Part shown: piece after piece, positions 45,066 to 51,456 of the stretch
Layout of the letters: each line of letters opens with the position of its first letter
Position numbering within the stretch: the first letter of the stretch is position 1
Origin: an uncultured Anaerolinea sp.
Lineage (GTDB): Bacteria; Chloroflexota; Anaerolineae; Anaerolineales; Villigracilaceae
DNA length: 52,827 nt
Direction: 5' to 3'
NCBI GenBank assembly: GCA_964571615.1
Contig: CAZNCT010000004.1
Location: 10,758 to 63,584, forward strand
Position numbers and translations under genes: made by a program
Notes under the pieces: generated by a model
What the model saw: only the letters and a program-made list of their open reading frames with translations
Database searches by the model: none
Told to the model about the DNA's origin: nothing

Positions 45066-45980
45066 ATGAATGCCACTTCCCCTGCCAGCCTGACGGTTGT
45101 TGTTCCGGCCTACAACGAATATGACTCTCTGCCAAATTTTGCCCCGGCACTGGTGGAATTTTGCCTGGCTCGCGGCTGGCGGCTGGTTTTCGTCAATGAC
45201 GGCTCATGCGATGGAACAGGCGAATTTCTGGAGGGTCTGGCCCAGACCCCGCAGGTCTGCGTCGTGCATCACCGCCTGAATCGTGGCTATGGCGGTGCGC
45301 TCAAAACCGGCATCCGACAGGTTGAGACGCCCTACCTGGTGACAATTGACGCGGACGGACAACATCAAATGGAGGACATTGAAACCGTTTTTCAGTTTAT
45401 GCTGGCCTAGGATGCCGATATGGTGGTCGGCAAACGGGATGAAAGGCAAAACCCTGACCTGTATCGTTCGCTGGGCAAAAAGTTAATCCGCACGTTTACC
45501 CGAATGCTGATGCCGCTGCCAATCAACGACCTGAACTCGGGGTTCAAACTCTACCGCACCGGGTTGGCCCAGCGTTACATCAACATTTGCCCGAACAGCA
45601 TGGCCTTCAGTGATGTGATTACACTGGTCTTTCTGAACGAGCGCAACCTGGTGCTGGAACATCCCATTCGGGTGGCGGCGCGCAAGGGTGGCAAAAGCAC
45701 CATCACCGCCTATACAGCGTTTGAAACAGTGGTCGAAATTCTCAACATTGTCTTGATGTTCAATCCGCTGCGTGTCTTTCTGCCGCTGGCGGCGGCCTGC
45801 ATTCTGGTCGGCGCAGGCTGGGGCCTGCCGATTATCCTGATGGGGCGCGGCGTCAGCGTGGGGGCCATGCTGGCCATTGTCAGCGGGCTGATATTTTTTG
45901 TCGGCGGGCTAATTGCCAGTCAGTTATCGGCTCTGCGCCTGGAACGTTTGCAAGACAACATCAAACCGCCCGGCCCATGA
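45066..45980 (+). pseudogene. GT2 polyprenyl-phosphate glycosyltransferase (GtrB/ArnC/DPM1-like) interrupted by an in-frame TAG at 45408-45410
   Basis: LTVVVPAYNE...VNDGSCDGT...IDADGQHQ, then ..FMLA-TAG-DADMVVGKRDE.. continues in the same frame into two C-terminal TM helices. Track ORFs 45021..45410 and 45420..45980 share a frame. Confidence 0.65.
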
Positions 45981-48463
45981 AGCATTCACGCTCAAAAATC
46001 CTGCTCTTTTGCATGGGGGTCTTTTCTGGCCTGCACCTGCTGGCCGCCTGGCAGGTTTACAAGGCTCCATTGCGCCCGGCCTTGCTGTTGGGTGGATTCA
46101 CACTGCTGGGGTTGCTCTCGCTGGTGGGGCTGGCCTGGTTGGTGCGCCAGACAACCTGGCAAGAAAAACTGCTCTCTCGGATGGATACCTGGAAAACCCC
46201 AATCGCCTGGCTGGCCCTGACCGGACTGCTGAGCGCCTGGTTGGCCAATGGCCTGAGCGCGGAGGCCCAGGCAGGCTGGCCGCTGGCCCTGCGCCCGGCC
46301 TTTGGCTGGCTGGCCGGACAATCCCTGCTGGTTTTACTCGCCCTGGCGGCGCTGGCGCCCCAAAAAACAGAAAAACAGCCCATCCTGAAGAACAGCCTGG
46401 CCGTTTTTGGCTTGCTCGTGCTGGTTGCCGGATTTATGGCCCTCAGCTGCCTGGGGCTGGAACGGGTCGGGTACTACTGGTATGCGCCAGGTACTCCCCT
46501 GCTGATTGGGCAGGTAGGGATCGCCCTGTCCGCCGGGGCCGGGCTGTCGGTTTGGCTGGGTTCGAAAATGGGGCAAAAATTTTCCACCGCCCGCCTGGAT
46601 ACGGCTCTTTTTATCGGTTTGTTCTTACTGACAGCAGCGCTCTGGCTGAGCGAACCGCCGGGCCGCCCGGTGAACTTCTTACCGGCAGCAATGCCGCCAA
46701 ATTATGAAATCTACCCCGATTCAGATTCGGCCTACCTCGACATCAACGCCCAACGCCTGCTGGCCGGACAACCCTTCTCAGTAGACCCGGCAGACAAACC
46801 AACCTATTCCTACTTTGTTTATCTTTTGCACCTGCTGGCAGGCCAGGACTTTGCCACCCTGCTCAATCTGCAAGCCGCCGTGCTGGCGCTGATTGCTCCG
46901 CTCTTCTACCTGCTGTTTGCAATTGGTTTCGACAATCGCCCGGCGGGCCTGGCCGCCGGAATTCTATTCTCGCTGCGCGAACTCAATTCCATTCGCTTGA
47001 GCAACGTCATCCTGGTTTCACATCCCAAACTGCTCTTGAGCGATGTGCCCTCGGCAGGGCTGATGATTTTGCTGGCCCTGTTATTGCTCGGCTGGCTGCG
47101 CGCCCCAAGACAGCGCCTGACCTGGCCGCTTTGGGCGGGGATCGTCTTCGCCGCCCTGCTGCTCCTGCGGACACAAGTCATCGTCCTGGCGCCGTTGGTG
47201 GCGCTGGGGGCCTGGTTCATCCTGCGACACCAGCCCCGCCGCCTGCTGGGACAGGCCGCACTCCTGGCCGCGCTTGGGTTCGGGGCCTTCAGCCTGCCCT
47301 GGGCCCTCTACGGGCTGAATGCGCCTGCCAGCGCCAACGCCAGCGCCTACAGCCGCCAGCTGGCCATTCAGTTTCAGTTTGACCCGCTCAATCACAACGT
47401 TCGTCCGCTGGCCGGCGAAAGCGAAGCGGAATTTAACGCCCGTATGCGCGAGCAGGTGCTAACCTTCGTGCGCGAAAATCCTGGCTATACGCTCAAAGCC
47501 ATCAGCGCCTATTTCTTCCGCAACCTGGCGCAGGGATTTCTCTTTCTGCCCGCCTCGCTGCGGCTGGAGATAAACCCGGCGGCCTACACCTCCCGGCTGC
47601 CCTACTGGAACAACTGGTTCGGCGGACTGCCGTCTGAATCGTGGGCGCCGCTAACGCTCAACCTGTTTCTGATTGCAAGCGGATTGGCCCAGGCCTGGCG
47701 CAAATTCCGTTGGATTGGTTTATTCCCGCTGCTGCTTTACCTGGGATACCTGACCAGCCTGGCCCTGCCCATGATTTCTGGCTGGCGCTTCCTGCTGCCC
47801 GCCGATTGGATTGTGCTGACCTATTACCTGCTCGGCGTAACCGCACTGGCAGACTTTTGGGCAGGTCGGTTCGGTCTGACAAAGACCTTACGGCCCACAG
47901 AAAACGTCCTGACAGCCGAAACCCGCCCGGCATGGCGGCGGGCCTTTGCAGGCCTGGCGCTGGCCTGTTGCTTTAGCGCCAGCCTGTTTGTGGCCCAGTC
48001 CCTGATGCCCAACCGCAGCCCCGCCCTGACAGAAGCCGAACGGCTGGAGGCCTACCTGAGCGCCAGCCAGGGCCAGCCAGAAGCCCCCAACCCGGAAGCC
48101 GTTAGAGCATTTCTAAGCCAACCAGGGGCCGGGTTGCGCTATGGCCGGGCACTCTACCCACGCTTTTTCGAGGCCGGGGAAGGATTTTCGCGCAACGGCT
48201 TAATCAGTTTTCGGCCCTATGAGTTTGCGCGCCTGGGGTTTTACCTGCTTGGGCCGCAATCGGAGCATGTCATCCTGCCGCTGACAGCCAGCCCGGAACA
48301 CTTCCCGCACGCCGCCGAGGTCTGGGCGCTTGGCTGCCGCCGCGAGGAAGAATTCTTTCATCGCACCTACCTCGAGGCCATTATGGTACTCTTGCCAGGC
48401 GAAAACCTGGTTGTCTGGCAAGAACCACACCCGAATAACCTGAGCGCAGGATGTCAGAAATGA
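45977..48463 (+). CDS. large polytopic membrane protein, GT-C-like (ArnT/PMT_2-type) glycosyltransferase candidate
   Basis: 828 aa with more than 12 predicted TM helices. An ATGA overlap couples it to the GT2 gene. The first-loop acidic segment is YPDSDSAYLDINAQRLLAG. Confidence 0.55.
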   Translation: MKHSRSKILLFCMGVFSGLHLLAAWQVYKAPLRPALLLGGFTLLGLLSLVGLAWLVRQTTWQEKLLSRMDTWKTPIAWLALTGLLSAWLANGLSAEAQAGWPLALRPAFGWLAGQSLLVLLALAALAPQKTEKQPILKNSLAVFGLLVLVAGFMALSCLGLERVGYYWYAPGTPLLIGQVGIALSAGAGLSVWLGSKMGQKFSTARLDTALFIGLFLLTAALWLSEPPGRPVNFLPAAMPPNYEIYPDSDSAYLDINAQRLLAGQPFSVDPADKPTYSYFVYLLHLLAGQDFATLLNLQAAVLALIAPLFYLLFAIGFDNRPAGLAAGILFSLRELNSIRLSNVILVSHPKLLLSDVPSAGLMILLALLLLGWLRAPRQRLTWPLWAGIVFAALLLLRTQVIVLAPLVALGAWFILRHQPRRLLGQAALLAALGFGAFSLPWALYGLNAPASANASAYSRQLAIQFQFDPLNHNVRPLAGESEAEFNARMREQVLTFVRENPGYTLKAISAYFFRNLAQGFLFLPASLRLEINPAAYTSRLPYWNNWFGGLPSESWAPLTLNLFLIASGLAQAWRKFRWIGLFPLLLYLGYLTSLALPMISGWRFLLPADWIVLTYYLLGVTALADFWAGRFGLTKTLRPTENVLTAETRPAWRRAFAGLALACCFSASLFVAQSLMPNRSPALTEAERLEAYLSASQGQPEAPNPEAVRAFLSQPGAGLRYGRALYPRFFEAGEGFSRNGLISFRPYEFARLGFYLLGPQSEHVILPLTASPEHFPHAAEVWALGCRREEEFFHRTYLEAIMVLLPGENLVVWQEPHPNNLSAGCQK

Positions 48464-48498
48464 CGCGTAAGCATTGCGTTAGCATTGGCTTTTTTGTC

Positions 48499-48527
48499 TT
48501 GACAAATTGCTCCAACTTGAATAATAT
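48499..48527 (+). promoter_or_regulatory. promoter of the cys operon leader
   Basis: TTGACA (48499-48504), a 17-nt spacer, then TAATAT (48522-48527). It is preceded by the direct repeat AGCATTG-N4-AGCATTG (48470-48487). Confidence 0.6.
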
Positions 48528-48564
48528 CTATCAAAATACTCTAATAAATCTTGAGAGAACCGCG

Positions 48565-48600
48565 ATGAACTATTGCTCCTGTATGCGGCGGGCTTCGTAA
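48565..48600 (+). CDS. candidate leader peptide uORF MNYCSCMRRAS (two Cys codons)
   Basis: ATG AAC TAT TGC TCC TGT ATG CGG CGG GCT TCG TAA, with GAGAG 7 nt upstream. It lies in the ~240-nt leader of the DUF4395-trx-cysK-cysE operon. Confidence 0.35.
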   Translation: MNYCSCMRRAS

Positions 48601-48683
48601 GTACCGTCGCTTCGTCAAAGAAACTTAGGCCAACTGACCGAAGAACGGTACGCGAATCCCGCATGTGACATTCAAACTGTCTC

Positions 48684-48714
48684 ATGGCGTTTGCCGCCGT
48701 TCTTTTTGTTTTCC
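48684..48714 (+). terminator. candidate attenuator terminator in the cys leader
   Basis: Stem AUGGCG/CGCCGU (4 G-C pairs plus U.G and A-U) with a 5-nt loop, followed by UCUUUUUGUUUU. Confidence 0.35.
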
Positions 48715-48773
48715 TGCCCGGGCAGGGAGACAGGTTCAGTTGGTTTTTTATTTTTATCACTTTCGAGGAGACT

Positions 48774-49244
48774 ATGAGCGAAATCACCACAAAAGTTGAC
48801 CACGCCGCGCTGAAAGCCAACCAGTTGACGATTATCGGCCTGAATGTGCTGGCGTTTGTACTCAATCAACCCTGGCTGGCCGCGCTGGTTGCAGCGGTGA
48901 TGCTGGCCGGTGCACTGGCGGGCAAGCCGTTCTTTGGGCAGGCGGTTCGTCAGGTTGTCCGCTATCAGCCCGATGTCATCACTGACAACCCTGAGCCACA
49001 CCGCTTTGCCCAGGGCCTGGGCGGATTGTTCATGCTGGGCGGCGCGCTGGCGCTGTTTGCGGGCGCAGGCGTGCTGGGCTGGAGCCTGGTCTGGATGGTC
49101 ACCGGGCTGGCCGCACTGAACGCTTTTGGCGGGTTCTGCGCCGGGTGCTTTATGTACTACTGGCTGGCCCGTTTTGGCGTGCCCGGGTTTGCGAAACAGG
49201 CCCCAGCCGGAACAGTTCCGGGCTTTCGTCCCAAGGAAGGTTAG
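48774..49244 (+). CDS. DUF4395 domain-containing membrane protein
   Basis: Start at ATG 48774 after GAGGAG. The sequence reads ..VDHAALKANQLTIIGLNVLAFV...HRFAQGLG...FGGFCAGCFMYYWL. Confidence 0.75.
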   Translation: MSEITTKVDHAALKANQLTIIGLNVLAFVLNQPWLAALVAAVMLAGALAGKPFFGQAVRQVVRYQPDVITDNPEPHRFAQGLGGLFMLGGALALFAGAGVLGWSLVWMVTGLAALNAFGGFCAGCFMYYWLARFGVPGFAKQAPAGTVPGFRPKEG

Positions 49245-49247
49245 CCG

Positions 49248-49667
49248 ATGAACGCCGAGATTTTAGAACGGCTCCTGATAGCGGCAGCCATTGGCGGGTT
49301 GGGCGTTACGGTTTTCATCCTGTTTAACCGTTTTACGCTCAAACGGGCCGAGAGCAAGGTAGCGCGCTTCTCGTCCTATCGTCCTGGCCTGCCTGCCCTG
49401 GTTTACTTCACCACCCCCACCTGCGCTCCGTGCAAGACCGTGCAACGGCCGGCCATTGAGCGCATGAAATCGAGGCTGGGACAGTGGTTTCAGGTTATCG
49501 AGGTCGATGCCAGCGCCCGGCCTGACCTGGCCCAGGAATGGGGTGTGATGAGTGTACCCACTACTTTTGTGATTGACGCCAGCGGCAAGCCGCGTTATGT
49601 CAATCATGGTGTCACCAACGCTGAAACGCTGATTAAACAACTTGAACTGGAGGACTTTTCGATATGA
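49248..49667 (+). CDS. membrane-anchored thioredoxin family protein (CAPC motif)
   Basis: 139 aa with an N-terminal TM. The thioredoxin fold reads [19 protein letters not shown]. Confidence 0.85.
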
Positions 49668-50596
49668 AAATCGCTGCAAATGTGACCGAATTGATTGGCA
49701 ATACCCCGCTGGTACGCCTGAATCGCCTGAACCCCGGCCCAGCGGAGGTGGTACTAAAACTGGAATTTTATAACCCGGCCAAGAGTGTCAAAGACCGGAT
49801 TGGGTTTGCGATGATTGATGCCGCCGAAAAAGCGGGCGCGCTCAAAGCAGGGCAAACGATTGTTGAACCAACCAGCGGCAACACTGGCATTGCGCTGGCG
49901 ATGGTGGCGGCAGCCAAAGGGTACGGATGTATCCTGTTTATGCCTGAAACAATGAGCAAAGAGCGCCGCATGTTGTTACGCGCCTATGGCGCCGAACTGG
50001 TACTCACCCCCGGGCCAGAAGGCATGGGCGGGGCCATCAAACGCGCCGAGGAACTTGTGGCTTCTGACCCGCAAAAATATTTCATGCCCCAGCAGTTCCA
50101 AAACCCGGCCAACCCCGAAATCCACCGCCGCACCACTGCCGAGGAAATCTGGCGCGATACCGATGGACAGGTGGATATTCTGGTCTCAGGCATCGGCACC
50201 GGCGGGACGATTACCGGCACGGGTGAAGTGCTCAAAAGCCGCAAAGCATCGCTGCGCGTGGTGGCTGTCGAGCCAGACGCCTCGCCGGTGCTTTCAGGCG
50301 GTACCAAAGGCCCGCACAAAATTCAGGGCATTGGCGCCGGGTTTGTGCCGCAGGTGCTGAACACCCAAATTTACGATGAAATCATCCGCGTCACCGACGA
50401 TGATGCGATGGACACGGCCCGACGCCTGGCGAAAGAAGAGGGCATCCTGGTTGGCATCTCATCGGGCGCGGCAACCTGGGCTGCCCTGCAAGTGGCCCAG
50501 CGCCCCGAAAATGCAGGCAAGTTGATTGTGGTCATCATCCCATCGTTTGGCGAGCGTTACTTATCTTCCGCGCTGTATGCGCATTTAGCAGATTGA
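49664..50596 (+). CDS. cysK: cysteine synthase A (O-acetylserine sulfhydrylase)
   Basis: 310 aa: ..[11 protein letters not shown]...[11 protein letters not shown]...[10 protein letters not shown]... Confidence 0.95.
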
Positions 50597-50597
50597 T

Positions 50598-50691
50598 GTA
50601 TCAGGTTCTTCGGTATCAGGTTTCAGGTTAAACCCTTGATTGGCAAAGCAGAAAACCTGGCACCTGACACTTGATACCCAACACCTGAAAC
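50598..50691. repeat. imperfect ~95-bp inverted repeat between cysK and cysE
   Basis: The left arm carries three TCAGGT units (GTATCAGGTT, GGTATCAGGTTTCAGGTT). The right arm carries three ACCTG units (AACCTGG, CACCTGACA..TTGATACC, CACCTGAAAC). Confidence 0.6.
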
Positions 50692-50700
50692 GGAGTGTTT

Positions 50701-51456
50701 ATGCAAGCAGAACTGACCCAATCAAAAAATCACAAAATCACCCAATCACCCAATTTTTTCGCTTCGGTGCGTGATGACCTGAAATCGGCCTTGCAGCGAG
50801 ACCCGGCGGCGCGTTCGCGGCTCGAGATTGCCCTGCTCTATCCGGGCCTGCACGCCATCTGGATTCACCGCATCAGCCATTGGTTGTGGCGGCGCGGGGC
50901 AAAACTGCCCGCCCGCTGGCTTTCACAACTGGCGCGCAGTTTGACCGGGGTTGAAATTCATCCTGGCGCAATCATTGGTCAGCGGGTTTTCATTGACCAC
51001 GGCATGGGAGTCGTCATCGGCGAGACTGCCGAAGTCGGCGACGACGTGACCCTGTATCACGGTGTTACCCTGGGCGGCACCTCGCTCGAAAAAGGCAAGC
51101 GGCACCCGACGATTGGCCCAAGGGTGACGATTGGGGCAGGCGCAAAAGTGCTCGGAAATATCACCATTGGCGCCGACAGCCGCATTGGAGCAAACGCCGT
51201 CGTGGTCAAATCAGTTCCTGAAAATTCGGTGGTGGTCGGCGTGCCAGGGCAAATTGTGAAACGCGCCAGGCCGCACCAGGCCGGTGATGCGCCAGACTTG
51301 AATCACACCGCCCTGCCCGATGTGTTTGCGGTAGCCATCAAAGACCTGATGGCGCGTGTGGATGAACTCGAGGGCCGGGTGGAAGGCCACTCACACCCGC
51401 ACCACGTCCACGCCCCGGTGGATGACACCTGGCAGGAGGCCGATTTTGTGATTTAG
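50701..51456 (+). CDS. cysE: serine O-acetyltransferase
   Basis: I prefer ATG 50701 after GGAG. The sequence reads ..[30 protein letters not shown].. followed by left-handed beta-helix hexapeptide repeats. Confidence 0.92.

Follow-up and report, generated by a model that had tools for sequence, protein, structure and literature searches.

Leader-peptide attenuation with an intrinsic terminator is textbook for Trp, His, Phe, Leu, Thr, and Ile/Val, and its classical cases are the enterobacterial trp, his, phe, leu, thr, and ilv operons. Control in the trp paradigm is kinetic, since the antiterminator is less stable than the terminator. This report concerns a leader in front of a cysteine-synthesis operon (DUF4395, thioredoxin, cysK, and cysE) on the forward (+) strand of a 52,827-nucleotide (nt) stretch of an Anaerolinea sp. 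contig, here called the window, to which all positions refer unless another locus is named. We consider it about 85% probable that this leader is a ribosome-mediated (leader-peptide) transcription attenuator reporting charged tRNA-Cys. Comparison of related leaders supports an upstream open reading frame (uORF), its frame, its Cys codons and their spacing, three covarying sets of helices, runs of U, and cysteine genes downstream; Cys-specific stalling, its timing, and the behavior of the RNA without a ribosome are predicted from these. A preliminary description of this DNA had proposed a Cys-codon uORF attenuator upstream of DUF4395-trx-cysK-cysE, and the comparison bears that proposal out, as the uORF and both Cys codons recur in every orthologous leader and the alternative helices covary through compensatory changes.

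Set beside the enterobacterial attenuators as they are generally known, the leader looks similar in having a short uORF with codons for the operon's own amino acid, mutually exclusive helices of the 1:2, 2:3, and 3:4 type ending in an intrinsic terminator, a stop codon placed so that a terminating ribosome would block the antiterminator, and a terminator more stable than the antiterminator, as expected of kinetic control. Each feature that defines a leader-peptide attenuator at the level of sequence (uORF, exclusive helices with U-runs, spacing, and genes for the cognate amino acid, here cysteine) was found. Unlike the enterobacterial leaders, which it does not resemble in sequence, it matches no Rfam leader family, would sense cysteine via two nonadjacent codons (C-x-C), has a basal helix, involving the last uORF codons, that lengthens its antiterminator, nests two terminators on one 5' strand, has members that are apparently leaderless, and belongs to Chloroflexota hosts.

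Cysteine leaders have been described from actinobacteria, where Cys-codon leader peptides were predicted for cys operons and no terminators were seen in mycobacterial cys leaders (Seliverstov et al. 2005, PMC1262725). In Mycobacterium smegmatis, leaderless poly-Cys ORFs act on translation by unmasking a ribosome-binding site, an arrangement named the "Cys ribulon" (Canestrari et al. 2020, bioRxiv 10.1101/834739). The likeness lies in stalling at Cys codons of a short leader ORF as the proposed control of cysteine operons, including those with CysO/CysM-type genes, and in the leaderless appearance of part of the Chloroflexota family. There are also differences: two conserved U-run terminators stand here in place of translational unmasking, the mycobacterial ORFs have at least two consecutive Cys codons whereas the Chloroflexota leaders of this type (type I) have C-x-C, and there is no sequence relationship between leaders from the two phyla. 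The window leader itself falls outside the class of leaderless ORFs with consecutive Cys codons, as it has a 37-nt 5' untranslated region (UTR), a ribosome-binding site, and one codon between the two Cys codons, and the ribosome-binding site of its first structural gene (GAGGAG, 48765 to 48770) lies outside every conserved helix, with U-run terminators present instead.

The uORFC-8-2 motif upstream of cysS in Rhodobacterales is a predicted attenuator that combines a terminator with a tandem pair of Cys codons (Brewer et al. 2021, PMC8632094). It shares with the Chloroflexota leader the prediction of ribosome-mediated attenuation, two conserved Cys codons, and a terminator stem with a U-run, but it precedes a Cys-tRNA synthetase gene in Alphaproteobacteria rather than biosynthesis genes, and its published description sets it apart by tandem Cys codons (at about positions 14 and 15) inside the first stem of a two-stem architecture. 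Among open-access papers and bioRxiv preprints, we found no description of a Chloroflexota cysteine attenuator or of leader-peptide attenuation in that phylum, and no terminator-type Cys attenuation of biosynthetic operons. The family in Chloroflexota (Anaerolineales and relatives) appears to be undescribed, the type of switch itself being known. If confirmed, it would provide a classical terminator-based Cys attenuator on cysteine-synthesis operons, for which the studied cases we found are the mycobacterial ones acting on translation, and three features set its design apart: two terminators nested on one 5' strand, orthologous uORFs that start either leaderless or from a ribosome-binding site, and an antiterminator reaching into the last codons of the uORF.

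Recovery of related leaders

Related loci were collected by a DUF4395 protein search and comprise reference genomes (L001 to L020), metagenome contigs (L021 to L038), and twelve distant homologues (L039 to L050); the named relatives are Chloroflexota metagenome-assembled genomes, mostly Anaerolineales. Of the first 38 loci (L001 to L038), 12 visibly retain the leader upstream of DUF4395. A covariance model built from 13 leaders (R1) took as input only sequence beginning after the second Cys codon, so it was blind to the Cys codons. R1 recovered four diverged leaders (L009, L011, L012, and L013; E values of 2e-5 to 2e-4) and matched 11 of the 12 newly fetched loci (L039 to L050), and every leader that it recovered had an in-frame Cys uORF just upstream, outside the model's view. 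Model R2, used at thresholds of E ≤ 0.01 and then E ≤ 1e-4, did not reach L011 or L012 at either. The covariance model is ready for annotating Chloroflexota genomes.

Helices were scored on two kinds of alignment, and both counts are given below. MAFFT misplaced the outer helix in L006, L008, and L025, and the counts from that alignment (A3) understate helix 2; the model-based alignments A8 and A9 mend this misplacement, yet they are fitted to structure models. The middle of the four diverged leaders was poorly aligned by the models, and these leaders were therefore studied by folding.

A conserved uORF with two Cys codons

The uORF of the window runs from the ATG at 48565 through the TAA ending at 48600 and encodes MNYCSCMRRAS, 11 codons, with Cys codons UGC at 48574 to 48576 and UGU at 48580 to 48582. 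It is preceded by the Shine-Dalgarno-like motif GAGAGAA (48553 to 48559), and GGAG- or GAGA-type motifs are found 7 to 12 nt upstream of the uORF ATG in leaders with a 5' UTR. A corresponding uORF is present in the window and 27 further Chloroflexota metagenome loci, which amount to 27 distinct uORF regions with the window included. All 27 follow one consensus, an N terminus of variable length followed by C-x-C-[MLI]-x-R-x-x-stop, in uORFs of 11 to 19 codons. UGC serves as the first Cys codon in 26 leaders and is replaced synonymously by UGU in the remaining one (L041), UGU is the second in all 27, and the codon between them is UCC, UCA, UCG, UUG, or AUG. Exactly 5 codons stand between the second Cys codon and the stop throughout, with an invariable Cys-to-stop spacing of 18 nt, and the stop itself is UAA in 13 leaders and UAG in 14.

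Upstream of the Cys codons, the uORF varies in both sequence and length, with 1 to 9 codons from the start ATG to the first Cys when counted from the upstream-most in-frame ATG that lies 3' of the predicted transcription start. In 16 leaders, the stretch from the predicted transcription start to the first Cys codon has 18 ATGs in total, every one of them in frame. No conserved pairing identified by RNAalifold takes in bases 48573 to 48582, and where the uORF is not involved in RNA structure the two Cys are the sole conserved residues. All 27 leaders have a U directly 5' of the first Cys codon, though the codon that it belongs to encodes seven different amino acids.

Two modes of initiation were found among these orthologous uORFs. 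In the mode that includes the window, a TTGACA-16/18-TAnnnT promoter is followed by a 25- to 46-nt UTR and a GGAG-like site. In the other, the promoter is TTGACT-16-TAAAAT and the ATG lies 7 to 9 nt after the −10 element (L004, L005, L008, L010, and L023, and by eye L044 to L047; for example, L005:2712-2757). At this distance, transcription is predicted to begin with the A of the ATG or a base adjacent to it, which would make the uORF leaderless. That the start codon is kept under two different initiation modes argues that these uORFs are translated, and we infer that the window uORF is translated as well. The loci of the second mode, if read correctly, also provide indirect evidence for leaderless translation in Anaerolineae.

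Three mutually exclusive sets of helices

By comparison of the leaders, a short hairpin (P1), a long hairpin (LH), and a pair of terminators (T1 and T2) are shown as three mutually exclusive helix sets that share strands, each with compensatory changes. Folding of positions 48535 to 48780 gave a z score of −4.6 against shuffles. Seventeen leaders were folded over their full length; each adopts P1 together with the T2 hairpin (z of −3.9 to −8.8) and contains the stems of both terminators. P1 and T2 were not part of the preliminary description.

T1 (48640 to 48712) pairs GAAGAACGGU (48640 to 48649) with GCCGUUCUUU (48696 to 48705), encloses an inner hairpin, and runs into the U-run UUUUUGUUUU, which ends at 48712. 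RNAalifold found it unaided, with 93.6% of helix cells paired and compensatory changes; five pairs of the stem change on both sides among 23 model-aligned sequences, and T1 folded alone has an energy of −26.5 kcal/mol. The inner hairpin (48662 to 48686) pairs CAUGUGACA (48662 to 48670) with UGUCUCAUG (48678 to 48686) and is 93 to 94% paired, with changes on both sides in 3 of 10 pairs (13 sequences) or 7 of 10 (23 sequences). T2 (48630 to 48755) is stacked on T1 and pairs CCAACUGACC (48630 to 48639) with GGUuCAGUUGG (48733 to 48743) ahead of the U-run UUUUUUAUUUUU (48744 to 48755). Eight of the 10 pairs of this outer helix change on both sides among the 23 sequences, and the helix occurs in at least six sequence versions. 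We take its likely role to be that of a back-up terminator. Between T1 and the 3' arm of T2 lies a small variable hairpin (48713 to 48726; CCUGCC with GGCAGG), seen in most leaders, absent from L006 and L008, and probably a spacer.

Taken as a whole on the MAFFT alignment, the terminator state is 92.8% paired, compared with 30 to 55% in slid controls, and 12 of 43 pairs change on both sides, a number equaled in none of 500 shuffles. On the 23 sequences, 24 of 43 pairs change on both sides, compared with 9 to 14 in slid controls. A U-run follows each covarying terminator stem in all leaders. Related loci end their upstream genes with canonical hairpin-plus-UUUUUGUU terminators, which argues that these bacteria use intrinsic termination.

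LH (48588 to 48662) consists of a basal helix and two upper helices. The basal helix joins GCGGGCUUCG(U) at 48588 to 48598 with (G)CGAAUCCCGC at 48652 to 48662, its core being 48588 to 48597 with 48653 to 48662; above it, GUACCGU (48601 to 48607) pairs with ACGGUAC (48645 to 48651) and CUUCGUC (48610 to 48616) with GAcCGAAG (48636 to 48643). When the leader is ended after LH, LH is the minimum-energy fold of its segment in 16 of 17 leaders; the exception is L009, whose segment was too short and whose LH is aligned by R2 over positions 1268 to 1379 of that locus. On the MAFFT alignment, 88.6% of LH cells pair compared with 28 to 45% in slid controls, and six pairs change on both sides. The model-based alignment of 23 distinct sequences gives 89.3% and 10 of 25 pairs, compared with 1 to 5 pairs in slid controls. 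Two pairs (20:71 and 21:70 of alignment A6) covary perfectly, with UA in 11 and CG in 12 sequences at one of them and AU in 15, GC in 7, and GU in 1 at the other. The 3' partners of these pairs are unpaired or in G wobbles in the terminator fold, so LH alone explains their covariation. The apical part varies in sequence and length, with inserts of 25 to 30 nt in L011 and L013. Because LH holds the 5' strand of the conserved terminators (GAAGAACGGU, 48640 to 48649), it is the antiterminator.

P1 (48585 to 48610) pairs GCGGCGGGCU (48585 to 48594) with AGUaCCGUCGC (48600 to 48610) and has the uORF stop codon in and beside its loop. It was found by RNAalifold unprompted, with 96 to 97% of cells paired and 4 of 10 pairs changing on both sides, and folded alone it has an energy of −14.0 kcal/mol. 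Pairs 48586:48609 and 48587:48608 covary although their bases are unpaired in the other folds, which indicates that P1 itself is under selection. P1 would compete with the LH antiterminator, and it may act as a pause hairpin or make termination the default.

Proposed mechanism and energetics

Transcription would start a few bases after the TAATAT element (48522 to 48527), and the uORF would be translated while RNA polymerase transcribes the leader. When cysteine is plentiful, the ribosome would reach the UAA at 48598 to 48600 and cover about 48583 to 48610, a span that includes both 5' strands of LH; the free strand at 48640 to 48649 would then pair with 48696 to 48705 to form T1 or, failing that, T2 would form, and the operon would be off. 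When Cys-tRNA is scarce, the ribosome would stall with UGC or UGU (48574 to 48582) in its A site and its leading edge at only about 48586 to 48592. P1 would be blocked, most or all of LH would form once transcribed and trap 48636 to 48651, no terminator would form, and the polymerase would pass both U-runs to transcribe DUF4395-trx-cysK-cysE.

Plain folding with a masked ribosome gave no clean switch. For example, the window transcript to T1 adopted the terminator fold when the second Cys codon occupied the A site, and several leaders took the antiterminator fold without a ribosome. For this reason, energies of constrained states and barriers along the path between them were compared instead. 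The best antiterminator and best terminator folds at the point where T1 is complete were compared in 17 leaders, a test of geometry only, with a ribosome mask reaching 15 nt upstream and 12 nt downstream of the A-site codon's first base, a generally known footprint size. With the A site at the first Cys codon, the mean difference was −9.5 kcal/mol and the antiterminator was favored in 16 of 17 leaders. Moving it to the second Cys codon gave a mean of −2.2 kcal/mol, and 13 of 17 leaders then favored the antiterminator. With the A site at the stop codon, the mean was +9.4 kcal/mol and the terminator was favored in all 17, and without a ribosome the two states were balanced (+0.5 kcal/mol). For the window, the barrier from antiterminator to terminator, estimated by a direct-path heuristic only, was 12 to 30 kcal/mol with a stalled ribosome versus 3 to 7 kcal/mol with the ribosome at the stop.

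Arguments against attenuation and alternative explanations

Several observations count against a ribosome-mediated Cys attenuator. There are just two Cys codons, and they are not adjacent. The string U-UGC-NNN-UGU is almost invariant as nucleotides, which is tighter than a requirement for any Cys codon demands. Codons +2 to +5 and the stop sit inside P1 and LH, so conservation of the frame 3' of the Cys codons is inseparable from constraint on the RNA. The basal helix of LH is nearly invariant, and covariation therefore provides no test of it. Energetically, the A site at the second Cys codon leaves the two states nearly equal, with the terminator winning in 4 of 17 leaders, and at T2 the terminator is thermodynamically favored in every ribosome state tested, so read-through relies on LH forming first and being displaced slowly, that is, on kinetic trapping. 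The 23-sequence alignments behind the terminator and LH counts were fitted to models, significance is overstated by the shuffle counts because of relatedness among the sequences, and all hosts are uncultured metagenome-assembled genomes, for which the support consists of sequence comparison and folding.

The uORF might also act in a switch wired as the preliminary description drew it, with a small hairpin at 48684 to 48700 followed by UCUUUUUGUUUU as the terminator, the hairpin at 48662 to 48686 as the antiterminator, and a long hairpin, closed by AUGCGG (48583 to 48588) with CCGCAU (48659 to 48664) around an interrupted stem at 48601 to 48651, as an anti-antiterminator to be broken up by a stalled ribosome. 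Each of these pairings is possible in the sequence, a terminator scan reports the small hairpin with its U-run, and GGCG and CGCC are invariant in 13 close leaders. The 48662-to-48686 hairpin is also real and covaries, but it lies within the terminator stem and can exist in either state, which disqualifies it as an antiterminator; it overlaps the small hairpin by 3 nt only, and GGCG:CGCC thus forms either way. The small hairpin is weak (4 to 6 pairs, −6.7 kcal/mol), absent from L012, and not evident in L009, both of which keep the long stems, so a conserved terminator it is not. AUGCGG and CCGCAU are indeed complementary, yet relatives have AUACGG, CUGGGG, AUGGCG, CUUGGG, and others without compensation, and the conserved basal helix is instead the one formed by GCGGGCUUCG and CGAAUCCCGC. 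The interrupted stem is likewise real and conserved, but it belongs to the antiterminator LH rather than to a structure that permits termination. Since this wiring would also leave the covarying stems 48640-48649:48696-48705 and 48630-48639:48733-48743 unexplained (five and eight pairs changing on both sides), we regard it as highly improbable. It is about as hard to sustain that the uORF is incidental and that a riboswitch or a protein- or tRNA-binding RNA, such as a T-box-like element, senses cysteine, O-acetylserine, sulfide, or tRNA-Cys. Riboswitches, too, have two alternative folds and a terminator, the conservation of U-UGC-NNN-UGU exceeds coding need (UUGC being, we presume, complementary to bases 34 to 37 of the tRNA-Cys anticodon loop), and ACGGUAC-GCG loosely resembles a T-box core. 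Against this, Rfam release 15 gave no gathering-score match anywhere in the window, and a scan of 48400 to 48850 at E ≤ 10 returned noise only, the best sub-threshold matches in the leader being unrelated eukaryotic and viral families (E of 5 to 9) with neither T-box nor SAM riboswitch models among them, in agreement with the preliminary description. The GGUAC-like stretch is variable (GGCGC, GGUGC, or GGUAG in relatives), leaderless members have about 20 nt from the start site to the Cys codons and no room for a Stem I or an aptamer, and the apex of LH is variable, with its large inserts in L011 and L013. Nearly all conserved bases are explained by the alternative helices, leaving no conserved junction or pocket, while an ATG start, the frame, and the stop are kept in all leaders despite N termini of differing length.

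A uORF that matters but has an output other than Cys-specific intrinsic termination, as in a sensor of translation stress, a Rho-dependent or translational attenuator, or an R-x-S arrest peptide, also receives very little weight from us. Any stall in the first six codons would have the same structural effect, the C-terminal R-[AG]-S is conserved, with L012 keeping its Ser by AGC instead of UCG, and the mycobacterial Cys leaders act on translation (bioRxiv 10.1101/834739). On the other side, two U-runs placed right after covarying stems are kept in all leaders, the structure-free part of the uORF has nothing but its two Cys conserved, and the downstream genes are always cysteine-synthesis genes. 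The last sense codon encodes Leu, Met, or Ala in L013, L011, and L050, in addition to the Ser specified by another codon in L012. A transcription attenuator read by the ribosome at its Cys codons remains the explanation that best accounts for the leader.

Promoter and upstream region

The sequence TTGACA-17-TAATAT at 48499 to 48527 on the + strand, a sigma-70-type promoter already noted in the preliminary description, is the sole sigma-70-like site in positions 48000 to 49300, where a promoter scan expects 0.4. Ten other leaders have it in the equivalent place, as TTGACA-16/18-TAnnnT, and, judged by this conservation in relatives, it is above chance. The direct repeat AGCATTG-N4-AGCATTG that precedes it (48470 to 48487; copies at 48470 to 48476 and 48481 to 48487) is present as described, but the window has 116 seven-base direct repeats with a period of 8 to 15, nine of them with a period of 11, and the repeat is not kept in the closest orthologous leaders (L001, L003, L021, and L022). 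It was rejected as an operator because of its chance-level frequency and its lack of conservation in the nearest relatives, and it is probably not functional.

Alignment revealed a conserved AT-rich box, TATCAAAATACTCTAATAAAT, at 48529 to 48551, between the −10 element and the uORF's ribosome-binding site. In leaders with a UTR, the box lies directly 3' of the −10 element, and the leaderless subgroup has a related 12-base stretch in reverse orientation upstream of the −35 element (L005:2676-2700 and equivalents). The shared core is TTTTATCATAAA, exact in L013, and ATTTATGATAAAAAT is nearly palindromic. The box may be a protein-binding site, possibly for a transcription factor, and such a site would mean a second level of control. 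The gene that precedes the leader (45977 to 48463) encodes a protein of 828 residues, apparently a multi-pass membrane protein, for which Pfam gave no match at E ≤ 0.001, and no obvious terminator was seen between this gene and the cys promoter.

Downstream genes and DUF4395

Four genes identified by Pfam and NCBIfam make up the regulated operon (48774 to 51456, + strand): DUF4395 (48774 to 49244; Pfam), with its start at the ATG at 48774 (corrected from 48776), a membrane-anchored thioredoxin (49248 to 49667; Pfam), cysK (49664 to 50596; TIGR01139, 486.7 bits against a cut-off of 351), and cysE (50695 to 51456; TIGR01172, 251 bits against a cut-off of 211). A gene encoding a ThiS/MoaD-like protein directly follows cysE in the cysK-cysE-type operon of several relatives (L040:5217-5471, L043:5252-5471, L046:5375-5498, L047:5268-5483, and L050:5277-5483), as well as in two operons without cysK (L042:4222-4494 and L049:4188-4460). 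In the window, cysE is followed by no such gene but by a minus-strand one for an SLH-domain protein.

In five loci (L009, L011, L012, L013, and L050), the leader is not directly upstream of DUF4395. In the three of these that were annotated (L011, L012, and L050), it heads a cysM-like gene followed by genes for a JAMM protease, DUF4395, thioredoxin, a carrier protein, and a MoeZ-like E1 enzyme. The carrier is MoaD/SAMP-like (CysO-like) and ends in GG, and the E1 enzyme has a rhodanese domain. Because the leader stands upstream of both cysK-cysE operons and cysM/JAMM/CysO-like/MoeZ operons, one leader heads two cysteine routes. DUF4395 lies behind a Cys leader in 31 of 31 leader-bearing loci, and thioredoxin is adjacent in nearly all of them, L048 being the exception, an association seen with cysK-cysE as well as cysM/CysO-type operons. 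In L012 (2719 to 3465), DUF4395 is apparently fused to the CysO-like carrier in a single ORF that reads MPTLKIP...IAGG and then DUF4395.

We found no functional literature on DUF4395 among open-access papers and bioRxiv preprints. Its gene neighborhoods point to a role in cysteine or sulfur-carrier metabolism, and the leader offers a regulatory argument for placing DUF4395 and its partner thioredoxin there.

A second leader type and a possible regulon

Some loci have a different Cys leader, type II, in which the uORF contains CCC or CC-x-C (L014, L028, and L048). Type I would be defined by C-x-C, nested twin terminators, and a leaderless or ribosome-binding-site-led uORF, and type II by a poly-Cys uORF and a single terminator. 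In an Aggregatilineales genome, the type II leader at L014:2786-2935 (identical in L028) precedes DUF4395 and has the uORF MMKTQFVVCCCNLEVRALRSMAASYQ, with three consecutive UGU codons, and a single GC-rich terminator. A ribosome placed at the stop lets this terminator fold, whereas in other states the distal part of the uORF is paired to the terminator region; folding of L014 gave no clear antiterminator model.

The presence of more than one leader type, seen in different loci, hints at a regulon-like arrangement in these Chloroflexota, which would be a further likeness to the mycobacterial Cys ribulon. A broader proposal is that Anaerolineae-type Chloroflexota run a ribosome-read cysteine regulon with at least two unrelated leader designs that covers both synthesis routes and includes DUF4395 and the membrane thioredoxin as a new cysteine or sulfur-carrier component. 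We put it forward tentatively, judging its chances to be slightly below even.

The type II leader of L048 (2190 to 2500) has the uORF MKTTFSSSINCCICPGEGSAPRAGFAFLD and a strong terminator and precedes DUF4395, cysK, and a gene for a Cys/Met pyridoxal phosphate (PLP) enzyme. A tRNA-Cys(GCA) gene lies at 2403 to 2474 of this locus, between the terminator and DUF4395, and from this gene order the sensor may control the very tRNA that it reads.

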